A DNA stretch of 64,000 nucleotides from Octopus sinensis. Taxonomy: Eukaryota. A program made the translations under genes and the position numbers. Positions 18,201-62,456 of this stretch are shown one piece after another. The notes beneath the pieces were generated by a model. That model was not told the DNA's origin. It did no database searches and was given only the letters and a program-made list of their open reading frames with translations. Location of the stretch: positions 58,714,001 through 58,778,000 of the forward strand of contig NC_042998.1 in the NCBI RefSeq assembly GCF_006345805.1, given 5' to 3'. Within the stretch, counting starts at the first letter, position 1, and each line of letters opens with the position of its first letter.

Positions 18201-21200
18201 CCCAGCTCAAATAAAAGAAGTACATGTAAGATACTGAAATCAGTCTGGGCAACCATGTCTTGCTTTTATAAAAGCTTTACATTGTATTGAAAGAAACACA
18301 TTTTCTGATTCAATAGTTACTGCTATGTTTTCTCTATTTTTTACCCTTCAACACTTTGAAAGTTACTCCACTTTTATGTTTTTTATCTCTGCAGGCGGTC
18401 ATGGATAATGGCCCAGCCAAGAAGAAGAAGATGTCTCAAACTCTCCAGGATGTTGGACATTCAATTGGAGATTTATTTGAAATTTCAAACATTCGCCGTG
18501 AGGTAAAATTTTATCCATCTTATCATCTTCGTTCCTTCCACTGGGGCAAAAAAAAAAATGGTATCAGCACTCTTCTCCTATTTCAGCTAAAAGAAGAAAA
18601 CCTAACAAAAACCTTTCAGTTTCCACAGTGCTCCTTTTAGACTTCAGTTGTTTTTAGTTTTTTTTTTTTTCATAAGTTAGTCTTGGTGGACAGGAGTGGT
18701 GTTCATCACTCTTATACATCCTCTAAAACTGCTAAAACTGTTGCAGTCGCTACTTAACTTGAATATCTGCTATGTGCTGTTCTATAGGAAAGCTGTGAAT
18801 AGAGTGGGAACCAGTGTCTTGTTCAAATGCTAGATTAGAGTATACTGTTAAAGGCACCCAAAGATCAAGTAGAGGTGTTGAACCTGGAAGCATGTGAGAT
18901 GTAGACTGTCTACGTTGTATAAAGAATTCTGTATTGAAATAATTTGAATAATTTCACAGTCACAAGAACCCATGAATTTTGGGTTTCGTCTAGGCTATCT
19001 AATCACTGCCTACTCTCTAAACTAGACTGGTACATTTAGTTTACTCATCCAGGAAGAATGAAAAGCATGAAAAGGCAAGGATGTTGCTTCAAATAAGATT
19101 TTTAGTGATGGTCATTGATGGGTCCAGTTTCTGCCTTAGTTACTCAACTCTAAGCTTTTTGTTTGTTCCTTCTCGAACCACGCCTGTCTCATAAGGGCCG
19201 GTTTCCTTGGCGTATAGGTTCCCCATCTGGATGGGACACCGATCCATCGCAGGTGATCTGCAAGATGCAGGAGGAAAGAGTGAGAGAAAGTTGTGGTGAA
19301 AGAGTCAGTAGAAGTTCGCCATTACCTTCTACTGGAGCCGCGTGGAGCTTAGGTCATTCGTTCATAAACACACACATTGCCCAGTCTGAGATTCGAACCC
19401 GCGACCCCTCAACTGCGAGTCCATTGCTCTAACCACTAGACCATATGCCTCCACAACTCTAAGCTAGAAAAATGTGACACTTTAGAAATATTTGATTTCC
19501 TAACTTAACATTGTTGTTTTCCTTTTTCTGTTCTCTTTGATCAAAGATCAGAAGTTTGTGATTTGGTGTCAGCTTTGTTACACCAAATAATTTTATCTCT
19601 TTTAAATTTAAGCCTCTTTGGCCAGTCACAAAATTGCACAAAACAGTGCCATGAAGTATGCAAAGGTTGTTTTGTCAGCAAAATAAACATCAGTGTATTT
19701 TGCTTAGTTCGATTTGTTGCTCTAATATTTTCATTAATCCCTTGGGGATCATGGGCACAATATTTATCTTTTTGGATTCTGAAGCATCAGAACTTACTCT
19801 GAAATTCTAGTACTGGTTCCTAATAAAATGCTTAATTCAAAAGATATAAAATGCATGCTTTTGCATGTACCTTTCTGTTAAGAACTACCAGCTGCAAGTT
19901 CCAAGTTCAAAAGTATAGCCATCAATTGGTACAATGAATTGGATCCAGCTCACTGTGCTAAATAATGGGAAAAATATATAATTTTAGAGTATTTTATTTG
20001 CTTGGATTGGTGACATTGAATGTTAGTCTGCAGAGAGTACCAACAAACCTCCTCCTATTATAGTCAGTGGTTGACAGATTTATATTTTGATGGGGATAGA
20101 CCTGCCATCTGAGAAGACCTGCAAAACCTGTGAAAACTTTTGATATCCTCAGACTAAATAATGCTTCTGAATTAGGCACAAGGACAACAATTTTGAAGAC
20201 AACTGTTGCCATTGAATCCTGTGATAGAATGGTATTTTGTTTTACCAATCTTGGTGGAGTGAAAGTCAAAATTAATTTCAATGGTATTAGAACTTAGAAT
20301 ATAAAGATTAGGAAGAAATACCACTAACCATTTTGTGTGACTCTAATGATTTTGCCAGTCCACCACCTATGATAATAATAATGGTTTCAAATTTTGGCAC
20401 AAGGTCAGAAAGTTGGTGGGAGGAGTAATAAAGAAATAGGTATTTTGCCTGTTGCTACATTCCAAGTTCAAATTCTGCAGAGGTCGACTTTGCCTTTCAT
20501 CCTTTTGGGGTCGATTAAATAAGTACCAGTTATGAAAGGTGAAAGGCAAAGTTGACCTCTGCAGAATTTGAACTGCTAGCATGGGTTGGACGGTTCGACC
20601 GGGGATCTGGGAAGCCAGAAGGCTGCACCAGAGCCTGGTGCAGCCTTCTGGCTTCCCAGATCCCCGTCGAACCGTCCAACCCATGCTAGCATGGAGAACG
20701 GACGTTAAACGATGATGATGATGATGATGAATGTAGCAACAGGCAAAATACCTATTTCTTTACTACCCACAAGGGGCTAAACACAGAGGGGACAAACAAG
20801 GACAGACAAATGGATTAAGTTGATTACATCGACCCCAGTGCGTAACTGGTACTTATTTAATCAACCCCGAAAGGATGAAAGGCAAAGTCAACCTTAGCGG
20901 AATTTGAACTCAGAATGTAACGGCAGACGAAATACGGCTATGCATTTCACCTGGCGTGCTAACGTTTCTGCCAGCTTGCCGCTAAGCATTTTGTCTAGCA
21001 GGCTAACAATTCTGCCAGCTTGCCGCCTTATTATTATTAATAATAATAATGATGATGATAATTTTTTCTACTCTAGGCACAAGGCCTGAAATTTTGTGGG
21101 GAGAGGGCAACTGGTAGCTTATCAACTCTGAAAGGATGAAAAACAAAGTCGATCTCTTTAGAACTTGAACTTGGAATGTAGCAATAGGCAAAATACTGCA

Positions 21201-32689: not shown

Positions 32690-33775
32690 TCTGAATAAAA
32701 ATGAATAATATTATCAATACACATAAAATCCTTAAATGCAAAAGGCAACATAAATCTTTGAAAAAACTCTTAACAAATGCCAAACTTCAGACACTACATC
32801 CACTCCCATCAGTTAAAAATTGTGCAGGCCATAACTGTGGTACCTGCCCCTTCCTACTTGAAGGCTCTGAATATACTTTCAAACAAGGAACAAAGTTTAA
32901 AATCTCCTGTTCCTCTGAGAACCTCATCTACGTTCTCACATGCGCCGGTTGCCAACACAATTATGTTGGACAAACGAAGAAGAGTAGCGGTTCATAAAGA
33001 ACAGATAAATCTCCCACAATACCGTCAAATTCCACTAAGTAGCCACATAGACTCTTGCGCTAGAGATAAAAATCCCAAATTTCACATATTCCCTTTCTAC
33101 CACTGTAAAGACGGAATCTCTACACAAGAAAGAATCAACAAGGAGAATCTTTTTATTGAAAAGTTCCAAACGCATCTTAATATGCAAACTCCACGATTAC
33201 CATACTCCTTTTTCTAGCATCCTATCTGACAAAAAATTGATATAAGCATCCTGTTTGACAAAAATCCATCTTTCCAATTAAAGAGCATAAAATCCACAGA
33301 ATTGTCTCCCCTTACTCATAGGAACTGGATAACTCCTATCCCATTTCCTGTTTTGACACACATTCACCCAACGCTTTAAACTAAGCACTACATTTAAGCA
33401 CATGGATCCTAATCCTTCAAAGAAGTTTTTCCAAGGACTATTATTGAACTCTAAAAGCATAAAGACTCTAAAATGTATTGGTATACTTATTTATTAGTTT
33501 TTGTATATATGTATTATTATTTTTTTGAAAAAAACATTGTAAATTTCTTTTTTTTTCCCCTTTCTCAATTTAAAAAAATTTCTTTTCCACTTACAAATCT
33601 TGAAAATTTGCTTTGCAATGAAAATCGGTATGATTTATTATTATTTTTTTTTAATTTTCCATACACCCATCTTTATTAAAATTTGCTTTCAATTTAACAT
33701 TCTGCTTTATTATGATTTTCCCTCTCCTATCATTTCTCCACGTGCGGTCAACACAACCCCACCATTTACTGATTT
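32690..33775 (+). mobile_element. Penelope-like element 3' part: Cys-rich linker, GIY-YIG endonuclease and terminal repeat
   Basis: CAGHNCGTC...SCSSENLIYVLTCAGCQHNYVGQT / RVAVHKEQI...SHIDSC...ERINKENLFIEKF (frameshifted, stop 33217); hammerhead-like motif at 33595-33636. Confidence 0.85.
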
Positions 33776-33835
33776 ATATGTATATATATATATTTCTTTA
33801 CTACCCTCAAGGGGCTAAACACAGAGGGGACAAAC

Positions 33836-33895: not shown

Positions 33896-35255
33896 TATCT
33901 CACAGAAGTATGTACACTCAAAAAAAATTTCAGTAAAATTGCCATTACTCTGATTATAGCGGAGGAAATCAAATGAAATTTATGCTGAATAAAATATATT
34001 ATTTATGCTAGCATTATACAAATTTGGAACACAAAACAATGAAGATTTTCAAAGATATGAACGAAATATTAACTTTCAAAAGTTACAAAAATATGTACAC
34101 CCTAAGGGAAATTTGCTATATTTAATGTTTTGTCCACTTTTTATTAATTAAATTCAAATATTGTCGATAATTTCAATTCTAATAAATTATTTCTCCCGGC
34201 ACTTTTGCACTGGTGGTTGTTATTGCATCTGCAGGAATTCTGATTCGTGTATCGTGGTGGAAATCTTCATTGTCATTAAAACGGCACCACAACTAAAAGA
34301 ATTGTCTGACGATTTAAAGAAAATTATTTTTACTTTGCACAAGAATTGTTTCGGATACAAGTTAATTAGCAGACGAATACATATTAGCGTAAACGTAGTT
34401 GACAAAGTTATTCAGAAGTACAAAGCTATTGTACGGCTAAGCAATAATCATCGCCCGAGTCGTCCATCTATTTTAACAGCACGTGATATTCTTTTCTACT
34501 CTAGGTACAAGGTCTGAAATTGTGGGGGGGGGGGACCAGTCGATGAGGTCGATCCCAGTGCACAACTGGTACTTAATTTATTGACCCCGAAAGGAGGAAA
34601 AGCATAGTCGACCGCGGCGGAATTTGAACTCAGAACGTAAAGACAGACGAAGTACCTATTTCCTTACTACCCACAAGGGGCTAAACACAGAGAGGACAAA
34701 CAAGGACAGACACACGGATTAAGTCGATTACATCGACCCCAGTGCGTAACTGGTACTTATTTAATCGACCGCGAAAGGATGAACGGGAAAGTCGACCTCG
34801 GCGGAATTTGAACTCAGAACGTAGCGGCAGACGAAATACCGCTAAGCATTTCGCCTGACTTGCTTATGTTTCTTATTTCTTTATTGTCCTCAAGGGGCTA
34901 AACATAGAGGGGACAAACAAAGACAGACAAAGGGATTAAGTCGATTACATCGACCCCAGTGCGTAACTGGTACTTAATTTATCGAACCCGAAAGGATAAA
35001 AGGCAAAGTCGACCTCGGCGGAATTTGAACTCAGAACATAGGGACAGATGAAATACCTATTTCTTTACTACCCACAAGGGGTTAAACACAGACGGGACAA
35101 ACAGACAGACAAACGGATTAAGTCGATTACATCGACCCAGTGCGTAACTGGTACTTAATTTATTGACCCCGAAAGGATGAAAGGCAAAGCCAACTTCTGC
35201 AGAATTAAATACCGTCAAGCATTTCGCCCGGCGTGCTTACGATTCTGCCAGCTCG

Positions 35256-35318
<63 letters not shown>

Positions 35319-35330
35319 TATATGTATGTA

Positions 35331-35402
<72 letters not shown>

Positions 35403-36477
35403 TGTATGTATGTATGTACGTACGTCTTCACTGCGCGTGATGTTCACCACATCCAACGTTGCGTGATGGACCACAGGCGTCGTACCGCTTCATCTTTGGT
35501 CCAAGAAGTATCTTCTGTTAGTGGAAAGAGTGTATCCGCTCAAACAGTTCGCCGAAGCTTGAACCAGTGTGGTCTTCATGGACACATTCCTCGTAGGAAG
35601 CCTCTCCTCCCTACCAGGCATAAATCAAGTCGTCTTTCTTTTACCGAAACCTATGTGAGTAAGGAGAAGAAGTTTTGGAATAAAATTCTTTTTGCTGATG
35701 AAACTAAAATCAACTTGATTGGGTCAAGTGGTGTTAAATGAGTATGGCGATGGCCAGGGGAAGATAATAGCGACAAACATACTGTACCTACCGTGAAACA
35801 CAGTGGCGGAAGTTTTATGCTTTAGGGATGCATGAGTGCAACTGAAGTCGGAGGACTCACATTTATTGAGAGAACAATGGATTCAGGGCTTTATTGTGAC
35901 ATATTGCAGTAAGCAATGTTGAAAAGTATCAAGGAACTAGGAAGACATTCCTTGTTCCAATGACCCTAATGACTCTAAACACACTTCAAAGATGACAACT
36001 AAGTTTTTATCAGATAAAAAGGTTAAGGTGTTGCCTTGGCCTATCATGTCATCTGATTTAAACCCGATGGAGCATCTTTGGGGTGTTTTGAAAAGAAAAG
36101 TTGAGGAGAAAAAATCTTGCAATGTAACACAGCTGAAAGACATTATTTAGGATGAATGGAGGTCGATTTCATCGGTTATATGCAAAAATTTAGTCGACTC
36201 TCTGCCCAGAAGACTTAATGTAGTCATTGAAAGCAAAGGCAGTCACACCAAATATTGAATATAGCAAATAATGCTTTAGAGTGTACACATTTTTGTATCG
36301 CTTGAAAATTAATATTTCGTTCATATCTTTGAAAATGTTTAATGTTTTGTGTTCCAAATATGCATAATGATTGCATGTATAATATACTTTATTCAGTATA
36401 AGTTTCGCTTGATATATTTCGATAATGACAATTTTACTGAAATTTTTTAGGGGTGTACATACTTCTGTGAGATACTG
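33893..36477 (+). mobile_element. Tc1 (DD34E) element with long IR/DR-type TIRs, interrupted
   Basis: TA-CAGTATCTCACAGAAGTATGTACAC at both ends; ~210-bp diverged TIRs with an inner direct repeat; transposase KELSDDLK..., [24 protein letters not shown] (36258), with stops. Confidence 0.92.
34491..35258 (-). mobile_element. head-to-tail array of family C SINE units inside the Tc1
   Basis: Repeated units with tails at about 34658, 34875 and 35059. Confidence 0.85.
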
Positions 36478-40972: not shown

Positions 40973-42214
40973 TCAGGCTGAGTAAAAGGTAAACAACGTT
41001 TTGAAACATGAAATTCATCACAATATATTTCAACAATGTGGAAATTTTATTCATCGAAGTAAGTACCATTATAACCAACACATTTTTGGCAACGAGTTAC
41101 AAGTTTGTTTACTCCAGTAGCATAAAAATTTGGAGTTCTGAAGCTGATGAACTCTTTAAACTCACTTTTAGCATCGGTTTGACTTTTGAAGTCCTCTCGC
41201 AGGAAATCATCAAGGTGCTTGAGAAAGTGGTAGTCGGTAGGAGAAAGTTCTGGGGAATAAGCTGGGTGGGGAAGAACTTCGTGGCCAAGTTCCCTCAATT
41301 TCTGGAGCGTCATTAGTGAAACATGTGGTCGAGCATTGTCATAAAGAATGATTGGCCCTCTTCTGTTGATCAGTTTGCGACGGAGGAGTAGCAGTTTTTC
41401 GTCCATTTTGGCAATTTCATGCCAAAATGTTTCTACAGTAATTTTTTTCCGGGTTTTTAGTTACAGTGGATGAGTCCAGCAGTATACTACCAAACAGTCA
41501 CCATAACCTGCTTTTTGAAGAGCTCGGATTTAAGGAAGGTTTTCGGTACTTCATTTTGGTCCAACCACTGCGACGAACGTTTTTTATTATTGTACAGAAT
41601 CTTTTCAACGCAAGTTACAATGCGGCCGAGAAATGGATCGGTCTGGTTACGGATTTTCTGATTTTCATTCAAATCGTATGATACCCATTTGTCGAACTTT
41701 TTTGATTTTCCGATCGCATGTAAATGGTTGCAGGCAGTTTTCTGGCTAACTTGAATTTCTTTTGCGAATTCTCAAGTGGTTTTACGTGGAACTTTCTCGA
41801 TGGCGGTCTTTAATTGACCGTCATTAATGACAGATGGGCGTCCACTGCGCACACGATCTTCAAGGCTCAGGTCTCCACCGCGAAATCGTTTAAACCAGTT
41901 TCCAGATGACCACCCACTGGTCATTTCCTCACCAAACGTTTCGTTGATATAGCGAGTAGTTTCAGCTGCCTTACATCCTTTTTTTGAAATTGACTAGCAA
42001 AATTTCTCGAATATCGCACTTTGACGGAGCTATTTCAGATGATTGTAACAACGGTGAAAAAATATCAATGTCAATCCATTAATGCATTTGAGCAAGTTTA
42101 TGTCTGTATTATCAGCCAATTGTAAAACACATGTTCAAAAGAAATTCAAAACTATAAAAATCCGGTACAAATTCTTTATGATTCAAAACGTTGCTTACCT
42201 TTTACTCAACCTGA
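40973..42214 (-). mobile_element. full-length mariner (DD34D) with disrupted transposase
   Basis: TIR TCAGG(C/T)TGAGTAAAAGGTAA, TA flanks, ~1.24 kb; RIVTC.EK.ILY, YDNARPH, HPAYSPELSPTDYH. Confidence 0.92.
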
Positions 42215-56099: not shown

Positions 56100-57230
56100 T
56101 GTTCATGACTTCTTGCCAATATTCCTTTAGCTCTTCAATTGTCAATGTATTAGTGGTAGAAATCACCGGGTTTTGACACAAAGAATTCATGGAGCAACGT
56201 TTTCAGCTCAACATCGTTGAATGTAATATCTCGAAGACTGTTGGAGAGTGACCGTAAAAGGTAATAGTTTGAAAGTGCTATAGCAAGAGAATACACTGGG
56301 TACAGAATTCTTGAATAGCAATTTTGGTTAAATTAGCGACGTAGGGGTCAGTGTTATCGCGTTGAAGCATGTCTTGTCGCTGGTCAGATCGTTTTAGCTT
56401 GATTGCCTCGTTGAATCGGTGCATTTGCTGACCACGTTGTTGCTTTTAAGCTTTTCGTAGTAGATTAGCCATTTTTAATCCCATCAAACGCAGATCTCAC
56501 TTGGCATGAGGTGTTGTCTATTTGTCGGAACTCAACCATCAACGTAAATACACCATTTTTATCGCCGGTAACGATGCGGAAAATAAATCACTTTCATCAG
56601 GAGTAGGTTGGCGTCAAGCAAACTTGTGTAGGAGAGCTAAAATTTATCTCCTTCATTCAAAGCGTATTGCACCCATGCACCGAATGTTTGAACCTTACCT
56701 ATCGACTGACGGTGACGGGTGAAGGTATCATGAGAGCATCCCATCCGCTGGGCCATTTCCCTTGTGGAATGGGTTGGATACTCGAGGATAAGCTCGTTCA
56801 ATTGGTCTTCATTGGATTGAACAGAGTGACCAGAAATGGAGAAATTGTGAGAACTAATTTCCATTCTTTGAAGAAGGAAAACCATTTTTATACAGCTCTT
56901 TAAGTAATAGCACCTGATTTTGTACAAAGACCTGTTTTGTCTCAAGCGGCTTTGGCAGTTTTGGAACCTTGGTTGAAAGCGAAAAAAGCAGGTACCAAAA
57001 ATGTTCATTTCTTTCTACTTGGCACTCCATCGTCTGATAAAAGTCCATAAGTCTGATAAAAAAGGTAAAACTTCTCAAATTTCAAAAACAATAAACAAAA
57101 GTTGTAAAGGTAGAATAAAGCTACAGAAACAAAAACAACAAACAAAAACATAAAACACTACGATAAAAATATTTTTCGTGTTAATTCAAATACCATTGGA
57201 AATAAACCAACGAATTTATCTGACAGCCAT
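56100..57230 (-). mobile_element. decayed mariner element
   Basis: STREMAQRMGCSH...IGKVQTFGAWV (WVPHEL-like motif); boundaries approximate. Confidence 0.7.
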
Positions 57231-57238
57231 ATATATAT

Positions 57239-57289
<51 letters not shown>

Positions 57290-57290
<1 letters not shown>

Positions 57291-57627
57291 AAAAAGAAAT
57301 GAAGAAAATGCTGACAAAATAATTTAAGTAAGGGAGAGTGTATTTAATTAGGTGAAAGTTCTTTTTACCGGTTGCGCATTTGTTATGCTTATCAAAAGAT
57401 ATTTTTTAAAGAGAGATAGAGTTCCTTTCTGATAGACTTTTTTTTCTCTTATCTGATAAGAGAAAAAAATTCTATCAGAAAGGAACTCTTTTGATAAGCA
57501 TAACAAATGCGCAACCGGTAAAAAGAACTTTCACCTAATTAAATACACTCTCCCTTACTTAAATTATTTTGTCAGCATTTTCTTCATTTCCTTTTTTTAT
57601 ATATCACAACTCGTGTTCCACATCTCC
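57290..57627. mobile_element. fold-back PLE-type terminal-repeat insertion with U3-A8 hammerhead-like motif
   Basis: Palindrome centred at 57454; TTGATAA-GCAT..ATGC-GCAA-CCGGTA at 57491-57520. Confidence 0.7.
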
Positions 57628-57635
57628 TTTTTTAA

Positions 57636-57704
<69 letters not shown>

Positions 57705-58052: not shown

Positions 58053-58572
58053 ATCTTTATATATATAAAACAGAGAATGTGTGTCTGTGTGTGTGTTTCC
58101 CTAAAACTTGAGAACTACACAACCAATTTCATTCAAATTTTACACATGCCTTACTTAGGGTCCGGGGAGTGTCAGCGTAGGGCAAGCCCACTGCAATATC
58201 ATATCTTCTCCACTACGATTCCCTAAAACTTGAGAACTACACAACCGATTCCATTCAAATTTTACACATGCCTTACTTAGGGTCCATGTAGTTTCATGGG
58301 CAAAAAATGTTCAACTTCTTGCCTAGAGCGAGCCCATAACAATATCATATCTTCTCCACTATTTCAGTATTACGTGTTAAAAGTGAAACAAAAACGTTTC
58401 TCTATTTTATGTCAGATACTTTCACATTAACAATAAAAATAATAATAACAATTGAATTATATGTAGTAAGTAATAATTAAAATCAAACTAAAGTAACATA
58501 ACAAAAGTAAAAATAGCAATTGGTATAAAATTGCATCAATGATTTGAACTTGAATAAGTGGTTTCACATGAA
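58053..58572 (+). mobile_element. non-autonomous Helitron-like 5' part with internal ~125-bp tandem duplication
   Basis: Starts TCTTTATATATATAAAA like the 5' end of 62083-62456; repeat unit ttccctaaaacttgagaactacacaacc at about 58097 and 58219. Confidence 0.55.
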
Positions 58573-58688
58573 TGGGAATAAATTAAAAATAAAATTAGCG
58601 TGCAGAAATGGAATAGTCCAGATGGATAATATAAAATTAAATTAAAGAAAAGACTATTGTCTATAAAGTATGTAATGTAGAGAAAAAA

Positions 58689-60367
58689 GGTCGCGTTTTT
58701 TTTGCGCTCTGTAAAATTCGGTTAAAAAAGAAAAAAGAACAAAAAGTGAATTGTGGTTGCGGAATTGGAACGTCGTTTGGTGCGGTTTCGCGTCGCACTG
58801 GTTCTGTGCGTCACACGTTTTCTGTTCGGGAGGCCGTTTTTCGGTCTGAGGCGACTATGAGCCGCCTCTACCAAACGGATGAGATGGAAGGGAGAAATTT
58901 CTCTGAAAATTCGTCGACATCTGAGGAGGAGTTGGCGGTGAAAAAAATGGAAAGCACCTACGCAGGTATAACGAAGAAGTCAACAGAAAAAGAGATAGAC
59001 CTGGCTAAGTTGACGGACTTCCAGGAGTTCATGAAGGAGGAGGAGAACGGAGAGGTTGAGCTGTTGCCTCTAGCAGGGCGCGGAGACTGGTTCCATCGTA
59101 GAACCATTAAATATAAAGTATTTATGAATGGAGGTAGAAAAATGGAAGTGTTTAACATGGAAGCAATTGAAGAGGCTTTCAAACAGACAGGAGAAGAAAT
59201 TGTGTACATGACAAAAGGATTAGAATATGGAACCATAACGGTACAATTTAAAAGTGAGAAAGCAGCCAGGAATATAGCAGCCAAGGTGGTGAGTACAGAA
59301 AAGTTTTACTTGTTCCCCTCGTATCTGAATATAAGGACCACCAGAATTAGGGTGGAAGGAATACCTCCACACCTAGAGGGCGAATTAATAACGGCTGCGG
59401 TTATCAAAGGAAATGAAGATAAAGTGGACATCCTCCACGCCATTATGAAATATGAAGGCGTGAGAGGTGCTACACTAGTGATGAACATACAGACGGAGGC
59501 GGAAGTTATAGAAAAGCTTACGGACAGTATAAAAACTGGAAATATTATTATGAGAGTGTGGGTGGAGGGTAGGGCGCCCAGGTGCTACAAGTGTGGCCTG
59601 AGGGGTCACATAAGAGCCTACTGCCCTCCCCCACCAAAGGAAAAAGAAAAGGAAATCGTCGCGGAAGCCCCAAAAGAGGAAGAAACCAAAGAGAACCAAA
59701 CGGAAAAAGAAACGACAGAAGAAGAGGAGATGCAACAAGAGTGGGAAGAAGGAAGAAAAAAGAGAAAAAGAAAGAAAAAGAAAAACTGTGCGAAGCCCCA
59801 ACCCACCCCAACACCACCCGCACCCTCTGAATCCCACCCTCCCCCTGCAGACAGTGAACCCACCCGCTCCCCTCCAACAAGAAAACAAAAGAAAAATAAT
59901 AATACATACAGACAAGTGTTTGAAAACGAACCCAGGCCGAACATTTATATTGTGACTGAACAGAAAGAGGTTGAAAGGGTAATGGAGGAGTATGAATGGT
60001 ATCAAATGGATGGGACCAGATATGCAGTGCTGGAAAAGAAGAATATAGATGAGTTTGTGTTGAGGTGTGAAAGGGAGAATTGGGAGGTGAAAGATACAAG
60101 AATGAGCGATGAATTCGTGGAATATATGGAGGACAGTTTCGGAGTAAGAATGGATATGGATGGTCTTCGTATTGGGAATGAACATTCAGGTGACAGTGAA
60201 AACAAAAGGACAGATAAGTGATGCTGGCGGAGGGGGCCGTTAGCATCGCTTTCATATTATCATTTTTTCATTTTCATTTGCTCATAAATTTAATCATATT
60301 GTTCTATGTCCCCCATGTTTTGTTATGTCCGCCATTCTTCGTGGCCCCTGGTGGGTAATAAAGAAAT
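58689..60367 (+). mobile_element. ORF1-only non-LTR retroelement (HAL1-like organisation)
   Basis: CpG-rich 5' leader, single intact ORF, short 3' UTR ending GCCCCTGGTGGGTAATAAAGAAAT; no ORF2. Confidence 0.75.
58857..60221 (+). CDS. gag-like / LINE ORF1 protein with CCHC zinc knuckle (454 aa from first ATG)
   Basis: Uninterrupted ORF; VEGRAPRCYKCGLRGHIRAYCP (CX2CX4HX4C), then acidic, basic (RKKRKRKKKK) and Pro-rich tracts. Confidence 0.85.
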   Translation: MSRLYQTDEMEGRNFSENSSTSEEELAVKKMESTYAGITKKSTEKEIDLAKLTDFQEFMKEEENGEVELLPLAGRGDWFHRRTIKYKVFMNGGRKMEVFNMEAIEEAFKQTGEEIVYMTKGLEYGTITVQFKSEKAARNIAAKVVSTEKFYLFPSYLNIRTTRIRVEGIPPHLEGELITAAVIKGNEDKVDILHAIMKYEGVRGATLVMNIQTEAEVIEKLTDSIKTGNIIMRVWVEGRAPRCYKCGLRGHIRAYCPPPPKEKEKEIVAEAPKEEETKENQTEKETTEEEEMQQEWEEGRKKRKRKKKKNCAKPQPTPTPPAPSESHPPPADSEPTRSPPTRKQKKNNNTYRQVFENEPRPNIYIVTEQKEVERVMEEYEWYQMDGTRYAVLEKKNIDEFVLRCERENWEVKDTRMSDEFVEYMEDSFGVRMDMDGLRIGNEHSGDSENKRTDK

Positions 60368-60861
60368 AACATGGAGGAAAGTACCTTCGAAAAGTGTCTT
60401 GGTGCGACTATGAAAGGTATCTAATCAGAGGCGGTAAATTCGCCACAATAGAAGCAAGGTTCGAGTCAACGGAACGTGCAAGGGAGTACTCGACTCGAAC
60501 TTGCAAAGTGGAAATATTATATTTTTACCTTTATATCTGGGACGTAGGACGTCCCGGAAAAAAATTTTTAATGCACCCCCCCCCCCAGAAGTAGCGCTAG
60601 GCTGGATTGTAGCCACACTTCTATACAAGAGGGAGGACAAGATACAATTGATCGAAATTACAAGAGACGGGCTAACAATTCCAGTCTGTTATATATTTTG
60701 AGTATTGATATCACTAGCGATATCAAGATATAACTTTGTATTTTGTATTTTATGTGTAGATGTGTATATATAGATGTACATGTAATATGTACACATATAT
60801 ATATACGCATATATACATGCACTAGCACTATGACCCGGCAACGACGGGTCTTTAATGCTAG

Positions 60862-60904
<43 letters not shown>

Positions 60905-61105
60905 TGTGTTTGTGTGTGTGTGTGTGTTTGTGTAAATATTATAGGTGCAGGCGTGGCTGTGTGACAAGAAGCTTGCTTCCCGACCACATGGTTCTGGGTT
61001 CAGTCCCTCTTCGTGGCACCTCGGGCAAGTATCTTCTTCTATATCCTCGGGCCGACCAAAGCTTTGTGAGTGGATTTTGTAAACGGAAACTGAAAAAAGC
61101 CCGTC

Positions 61106-61171
<66 letters not shown>

Positions 61172-61654: not shown

Positions 61655-62082
61655 TTATGTGCACATTAGTAGGTCTTTGATATAGTTTCCGTCCACTAAA
61701 GTCTACTTACAAGCTAGAGATGAACCTAAAGACGGTCAACCTTAATGTATGGTGTAGTAGTGGGAGATTGAACTCGAGATCGCGGATAACTTTTTAATCC
61801 CACAACTACGCTTGTGATCCTGTATATTCGTACAACTACATACTCATGGATAGCTTATGTTCCAACTCAGAGTCTTTATATTTAGAGGATGTCATCTTAT
61901 TTTCTACTTGGCTTTTGTCCCACAGCACCAGATATCCACATCCATACACTAAGATAGCGCATTAACCGAAAACGTCCGGATTTAGATTAATCAAAACACA
62001 GTGTAGCAGATAAAGACATGGAAATTAATAGTCTGGAGATTTAATGTATCATAGCAACGACTCATCTTTGAAATATAAATAA

Positions 62083-62456
62083 CTAGCAGTATCGCCCGGC
62101 GTTGCTCAGGTTTGTAAGGGAAATAACTATAAAGCATTTTTAGAGAGTTATAGCCAAAAAATGGAAAAAAATATGGTAAATTTTTTTTTGAGAGTTAAAA
62201 AAGGATGGAGTTGCGTCCCCTAGACAGTTTGTGGTTCGTGTTTCTAATTCTCGACCCCATGTCGAATTTATCGATTTTTTTCAGAACTGGGGGAACTTTT
62301 CAAAATTTTCGCTGCGTTAGTTTTGAATTATGACATTGGGCTATGTGTGTGTCAAGTTTCATCAGAATCGGTTGAAAGCCGTGGTCAGGGTGAGGGTACA
62401 AGCAAACAGACACACAGAAACACGCACAGACAAACTGCCGTTTATATATAGAGAGA
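62083..62456 (-). mobile_element. non-autonomous Helitron
   Basis: Minus-strand 5' TC, subterminal hairpin, CTAG 3' end, inserted between A and T. Confidence 0.8.

Follow-up and report, generated by a model that had tools for sequence, protein, structure and literature searches.

A common 3′ tail in an ORF1-only retroelement, several LINE families and a SINE of Octopus sinensis

The 64,000-nt stretch of Octopus sinensis DNA analysed here (hereafter, the window) contains a 1.68-kb element, A1, which encodes only an ORF1 and closes with GCCCCTGGTGGGTAATAAAGAAAT at 60344-60367 (+ strand). The same 24-mer lies on the minus strand in five tails of a short repeat, SINE C (20754-20777, 33792, 34658, 34875 and 35059). 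The question that this locus raises is which enzyme copies A1, and whether A1, the SINE and their partner form one system. The original prediction was a three-part system, with an unseen LINE, the ORF1-only element and the SINE sharing a tail; the sharing stood, and instead of three parts there is a guild in which the SINE is joined by several LINEs and by two lineages with ORF1 only.

The common 3′ terminus first noticed by inspection was borne out by six matches to the 24-mer in the window, against none in 100 shuffles, and the TGTCC-rich tracts noticed with it do lie before both tails. Aligned locally, the SINE and A1 ends have 39 identical positions over 47 nt (z 9.8). Compared alone, the tract 5′ of the last 28 nt showed no significant likeness between SINE and A1 (p 0.71), so what they have in common comes down, in essence, to the last ~25 nt. 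The shared tail (60344-60368, + strand) is predicted to form a 4-bp stem with a 5-nt loop, followed by AATAAAGAAATA; the covariation of the stem is weak (2 pairs, 8/500 shuffles, from 18 related rows of which one is misaligned). A1 extends one base past the 24-mer, to the A at 60368, and the fixed target sequence comes next. The short span of strong identity, only ~25 nt, could speak for the motif at 60344 being a piece of SINE or a chance match. This origin is refuted and keeps next to no probability: the tail ends all 30 fetched A1 copies, 123 nt 3′ of the stop codon, it is also terminal in the related subfamilies A2-A5, B1 and B2, and the shuffles gave none. A further 77 exact tails of A1's commonest form were counted.

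A1 occupies 58690..60368 (+ strand), as established from near-full-length matches and an empty-site comparison. The genome search with window positions 58700-60400 (best 40 of 840 candidates) gave 41 near-full-length matches with 91-100% identity, plus diverged relatives. ORF1 (58857..60221, + strand) encodes 454 aa with two predicted RRMs, a CCHC knuckle, an acidic/basic/Pro-rich linker and a small C-terminal domain. The zf-CCHC match is weak in A1 itself (Pfam, E 0.078) and above the cut-off in two relatives. The structural model has a pLDDT of about 80 over residues 41-260 and a pTM of 0.36, and its best Foldseek matches are tandem-RRM proteins (E 7e-6); the two RRM domains and the knuckle are thus predicted features. 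ORF2 is absent: the reading frame stops at 60221 and 30 of 30 A1 loci finish at the tail, while none of 30 A3-A5 loci has an ORF2 inside the element. An ORF of at least 440 aa is retained in just 8 of 30 A1 copies, owing to decay or assembly indels.

Five subfamilies, A1-A5, are 55-90% identical in the ORF1 core and form one clade (100/100), and a second ORF1-only lineage (B1, B2) forms a separate clade. The A- and B-type cores are 26-39% identical to every sampled LINE ORF1. Among the best 40-150 candidates scored per search, none was a parent LINE bearing an A-type ORF1; such a parent would be either extinct or unsampled. The ORF2-less layout is older than the split of A1 and A3, because these two are alignable through the ORF end and the 3′ UTR. 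The dN/dS values were 0.14-0.22 in six of the seven A-A subfamily pairs tested (the seventh was saturated) and 0.09 for the B1-B2 pair, each calculated from single copies, which makes the estimate err upward; these ratios indicate that ORF1 evolves under purifying selection. Within A1, private and shared changes showed no difference (pN/pS 0.65 vs 0.43, p 0.33). The protein database returned only three matches to ORF1, all partial and all octopus gene models, and the nearest database proteins were Octopus gene models and one Argonauta protein. Pieces of A-type ORF1 lie inside the Octopus vulgaris gene models P0121-P0123, one of them in a CFAP65-like cluster, and are probably annotation carry-over.

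All fetched A1 copies are inserted in one host repeat of ~1 kb. Its 5′ part (58054..58689, + strand), common to filled and empty copies, starts A/TC (the slash marks the boundary), and its 3′ part (60369..60861, + strand) carries the target motif ACATGGAGGAAAG at 60369, a subterminal palindrome at 60832-60850 and the end CTAG/T. In PMC4778049, Helitrons are described by a 5′-TC, a CTRR-3′ end, a 3′ palindrome, insertion between A and T and no inverted repeats. Among 13 empty host copies examined, the A/TC start was present in 9 of the 10 with the 5′ end found, and the palindrome with CTAG/T in 10 of the 11 with the 3′ end found. Judged by its ends, the host is a probable non-autonomous Helitron. 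The search of the 64-kb window for a further host or LINE copy found none.

In the first 30 of 426 exact host-site matches, those on C1, 17 sites were empty, of which five look like local duplicates, and 13 were filled at the identical base, by A elements (5), the LINE alpha (7) and a B element (1). The empty site reads GAAAAAAG(AAG)ATTTGAAC-ACATGGAGGAAAG. A search for an empty site with the host halves within 6 nt gave 0 matches, the real one being ~30 nt longer; most of this extra sequence is already present in the window flank. A1 inserts without target duplication, and 8-11 nt of the empty site are gone at the 5′ junction. The identical deletion junction occurs in 21 of 22 A1 copies adjoining the host, and the same deleted host junction is found in the far more diverged A2, A3 and A4 (L119, L120, L121, L126).

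This uniform junction could be read as the trace of a single event, in which A1 inserted once and the loaded Helitron then spread it, since one amplified insertion would give one 5′ junction. The 3′ host flanks of filled copies also differ a little less among themselves (5.6%) than from those of empty copies (6.8%). However, in 14 A1 copies with both flanks the flanks differ by 4.5% and the element by 1.4%, and flank divergence exceeds element divergence in all 91 A1 pairs. The 30 A1 copies fetched were the best BLAST matches to the copy in the window, a choice that lowers the apparent divergence of the element. Moreover, filled hosts are no nearer to each other than to empty ones (3.4% vs 3.4%), flank and element distances are uncorrelated (rho -0.06), and on the flank tree, itself weakly supported, filled hosts show no grouping (8 changes against 7.9 after shuffling). 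Since divergence in the flanks is threefold that in A1, repeated insertion is favoured over hitch-hiking in the Helitron. That one and the same base has different occupants, with 5′ truncations of variable extent, and that subfamilies far more diverged than the hosts have the same junction, also stands against hitch-hiking, which is disfavoured and appears very improbable. Seven of 30 A1 copies follow the tail of another element and lack between a few and ~80 nt of their 5′ end, and several A4 copies are flanked by 13-23-nt duplications. Together, the 5′ truncations, the target duplications or deletions and the independent-insertion comparison indicate that A elements spread by retrotransposition. 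A young branch of A4 (L214, L217, L218, L219, L221, L222, L225, L227) is located in another repeat, in five separate places, and its copies carry a 19-21-nt duplication.

The RT-encoding LINE that had been predicted to bear this tail exists, and in more than one form. Alpha, beta, gamma and delta, autonomous APE-RT families of the L1/Tx1 group, carry it, which makes at least four; they are 72-89% identical in ORF2 and have a common GCCCCT-GTGGG hairpin. In a zf-RVT search (best 150 of 24,042 candidates), 15 of the top 30 loci terminate in the tail. A pattern for non-SINE tails was of no use as a route to LINEs, the first 30 of its 5,531 matches all being SINE variants. Where the 3′ flank of an A1 copy left the host, the region downstream held alpha, a LINE of 5.25 kb, in 10 of 12 cases. 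Alpha has its own ORF1 and a 1132-aa ORF2, open in L034 and L038, in which Exo_endo_phos, RVT_1 and zf-RVT score above the cut-off (Pfam) and the catalytic motifs are present; the best PDB match of ORF2 is human L1 ORF2p (2e-64). Fourteen other alpha copies are 97.1-99.6% identical to L034, an age like that of A1.

In the families epsilon, zeta, eta, theta, iota, kappa and lambda, the TGTCC tract is kept and the end is mostly AATAAAG-like, while the hairpin sequences, compared by eye, differ. The partner LINEs combine an ORF2 with APE, RT and a C-terminal zinc finger with a CCHC ORF1, an architecture that defines the L1/Tx1 group and not Tx1 alone; 'Tx1-like' is a label given from architecture and target habit. 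Named Tx1 references were absent from the best 120 homologs and from the atlas clusters. The ORF2 tree was built by FastTree and carries a long-branch warning for the outgroups. Every family with a full-length 5′ part (alpha, beta, gamma, delta, eta, iota and lambda) has its own CCHC ORF1, 27-39% identical to the A-type in the core, which argues against the proposal that A1 supplies ORF1p to its partners.

Several loci display further features of these LINEs. L198:1950-6461 is a chimeric LINE with an unrelated ORF1 start, an A3-like ORF1 piece and a gamma ORF2, which suggests template switching between guild members. At L148:2228-2391, a U1 snRNA gene (Rfam RF00003, E 1.8e-31) begins directly where the 3′ end of an eta-like LINE stops. 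The young LINE iota has a 1137-aa ORF2, open in L268; in 8 of 8 loci (L268, L269, L270, L275, L276, L278, L279, L281) it occupies a single position within the head of a different abundant SINE, and an apparent uninserted copy of this SINE lies in the window at 60944-61108. The old and broken theta (L240, L248, L251, L255, L257, L261, L262) and some beta copies (L197) abut a tRNA-like repeat in antisense, as judged by eye. A second alpha site lies ~300 nt downstream in the same host (L193:6665) and accounts for 7 of 100 alpha-type tails.

The choice of target was compared through the sequences following the tails. The junctions of A1, alpha, beta and gamma were counted by eye, with patterns that leave out C in the final position; tandem copies are among those counted. 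After the A1 tail, 54 of 77 junctions read exactly WACATGG and 70 of 77 were within one mismatch of ACATGG. For alpha/B-type tails (first 100 of 211), 41 read CATGG and 68 were within one mismatch of ACATGG. The A1/alpha site was used by 0 of 24 beta and 0 of 48 gamma copies, 17 of the latter being at GGCAT, and A3-A5 are mostly elsewhere (1 of 28 at this site). According to Kojima 2015 (PMC4494074), a Tx1 target preference is recognised when >20% of flanks lie at multicopy sequences; the corresponding counts are 68/100 for alpha, 17/48 for gamma and 8/8 for iota, and 0/24 for beta at the A1/alpha site. The A1 tail scores 63-70 against beta and 35-47 against alpha. As it is nearer to beta while the target of A1 is that of alpha, tail and target indicate different partners. 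Because alpha uses the exact A1 insertion site in the Helitron-like repeat, it is the candidate for the reverse-transcribing partner of A1, and target and age make this pairing likely despite the beta-like tail.

SINE C has the features of a SINE: it is short, non-coding and high in copy number, with target duplications and a LINE-like 3′ end. In the window it is represented, on the minus strand, by a full-length copy of ~232 bp with tail (20753..20982), identified by tail match and junctions, by the last 45 nt of a 5′-truncated copy between TA repeats (33791..33835), and by a head-to-tail array (34538..35257) with units at 35058-35257, 34874-35056 and 34657-34873 and a partial unit at 34538-34655, in which the tails adjoin the SINE's own body. 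The genome contains 37,045 exact 32-mer SINE C tails. The mean pairwise difference among 16 full copies is 12%, and a 15-17-nt target duplication is present in 5 of 16 copies with the head. Motifs resembling the Pol III A and B boxes stand at SINE nt 15 and 79. ARAGORN found no tRNA in the window, and Rfam gave no tRNA match for three SINE loci; the Rfam matches that were returned for the SINE are chance microsatellite hairpins. SINE C may resemble the MetaSINE superfamily, in which a 66-bp Meta domain follows the tRNA head.

The 3′ end of SINE C is a mosaic of a 30-nt tract almost identical to the iota/theta 3′ UTRs (28/30) and the hairpin of the beta/alpha/A type. None of 60 SINE 3′ junctions is at the A1/alpha site (CATG); 26 of them join the tail to the body of SINE C itself, a position at which no LINE was found. 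Several LINEs were considered as its partner and set aside. Beta matches best over the last 27 nt, but has a G at tail+3 in only 3 of 24 copies versus 48 of 60 for the SINE; gamma has this G in 35 of 48, but a poorer tract (these counts were made by eye, and tandem copies are not independent). Iota and theta share the tract, but have a different hairpin, and SINE C was found in the SINE head occupied by iota only once in 30, 3 nt away. The idea that the SINE parasitises both the LINE and A1 did not hold, as its junctions avoid the A1/alpha site and its longest match is to other LINE families. SINE C belongs to the guild, probably with a partner other than alpha, and likely uses the same tail code via a different guild member.

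Taking these results together, A1, several LINEs and the SINE end in one tail, and we think it probable that alpha ORF2p copies A1 and that A1 ORF1p packages A1's own RNA. The ORF2p of alpha would bind the tail hairpin, as in stringent recognition, and its endonuclease would nick the host at GAAC/ACATGG, after which target-primed reverse transcription would proceed. Transcription likely starts a little upstream of the element, and the cDNA ends would then bear flank sequence. Such an end may anneal to the new target, so that 21 of 22 A1 copies are left with an identical small deletion; alternatively, it may bring a fresh target motif, giving mixed head-to-tail arrays; flank-bearing cDNA ends would thus explain both.

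A more far-reaching account is that the target is inherited through the RNA: A1 transcripts would read into the host on both sides, the target would be recognised by pairing with these tags, and the copy could be made by any ORF2p of the guild, such as that of beta. Old ORF1-only lineages would accordingly switch LINE partners via the tail code, and sub-lineages would keep their site through flank-derived tags instead of the partner's endonuclease. The mismatch of A1 tail and target fits this, as do the identical deleted host junctions in diverged A2, A3 and A4 (L119, L120, L121, L126), the A4 5′ ends with remnants of other copies' target duplications and the alpha/B 5′ ends that begin with target variants unlike the local host (L113). 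In addition, an A4 sub-branch of eight copies has another common target (2 changes vs 7.2 shuffled, 0/500), and cotranscription with the target can strengthen specificity, as stated in Kojima 2015 (PMC4494074). However, tags and ordinary target duplications look alike in tandem arrays, and the A4 clustering could stem from near-copies or from duplication together with the flanks (95-98% identical). As alpha itself encodes an endonuclease and uses the site, the simpler account suffices, and we regard inheritance by tags, and the partner switching that goes with it, as unlikely. Still less probable is the division of labour originally proposed, with RT from the LINE, ORF1p from A1 and a SINE in need of both. 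Selection on ORF1 and the common arrays of A1 and alpha agree with it, and ORF1-only proteins are considered likely to multimerise with partner proteins and enhance transposition (Kojima 2018, PMC5786205). Against it stand the seven full-length LINE families with their own ORF1 and the absence of SINE junctions from the A1/alpha site, and selection on a parasite's ORF1 would be best explained by a benefit to its own RNA. Reverse transcription by alpha, with A1 ORF1p serving A1 RNA, is the reading preferred here.

ORF1-only derivatives of LINEs are known as HAL1 (from L1, in mammals), HeT-A (Jockey) and Ag-Sponge (CR1), according to PMC5786205 and PMC5753468. Like these, A1 encodes only ORF1p, has a LINE 3′ end and needs a partner's ORF2p, and the class has several independent origins, in the octopus lineages A and B. 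Unlike them, A1 comes from an invertebrate L1/Tx1-group radiation, has a tail defined by sequence and hairpin instead of poly(A), is site-specific within another transposon, and has no sampled parent LINE closer than 39% in ORF1. Tx1 elements that target non-autonomous DNA transposons include Tx1-Mar, with SINEU, in crocodilians and Xenopus Tx1 in Tx1D (PMC4494074). These systems likewise have LINEs and non-autonomous passengers piled up at one or two transposon sites, tandem insertions, a partner assigned by the common target and use of a second host site. The octopus host is Helitron-like, whereas the Tx1 systems described there use Mariner, piggyBac or Harbinger, and the octopus passenger A1 is protein-coding, unlike SINEU with Tx1-Mar. 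SINE C differs from SINEU in its apparent tRNA-type box layout, its LINE-like tail and its not sharing the common site. Stringent LINE/SINE pairs of the L1 clade in maize/sorghum and Chlamydomonas have a ~45-nt common 3′ end with a predicted hairpin (PMC3747384). The octopus L1-group LINEs and SINE share a 3′ end with a predicted hairpin in the same way; they differ in belonging to an animal, in having no poly(A), and in a tail common to many LINE families (72-89% in ORF2) and to ORF1-only elements. The O. vulgaris repeat library of PMC13282606 lists 80 L1-Tx1 families and gives no description of them.

The open literature, to which the search was confined (Repbase and Dfam lie outside it), yielded no published account of this octopus system, of a Tx1-like element with ORF1 alone or of a Helitron as target. 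The component traits are known from other animals and their combination is new; the surprise is moderate, the parts being individually known, unless tag-guided targeting holds, which would mean RNA-guided heritable site choice in a guild of APE-type retrotransposons. Young copies of LINE, half-LINE and SINE coexist here, their tails swapped and their targets distinct, which makes the recognition of tails experimentally separable from the choice of site. The guild thus lends itself to two questions: how ORF1p serves an element lacking RT, and what sets the partner and target among LINEs reading a common 3′ hairpin. Moreover, it links a major SINE of octopods with the L1/Tx1 group.

The window also contains other repeats. 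A long inverted-repeat (fold-back, MITE-like) element with a 78% opposite-strand self-match lies at 57229-57682, and at 62080-62450 (- strand) there is another short element whose ends, with a palindrome and CTAG, look Helitron-like by eye. Five ORF fragments, at 41047-41460 (-), 56637-57014 (-), 34152-34517, 35181-35741 and 32695-33217, presumably resemble mariner, Tc1 and GIY-YIG/Penelope proteins.
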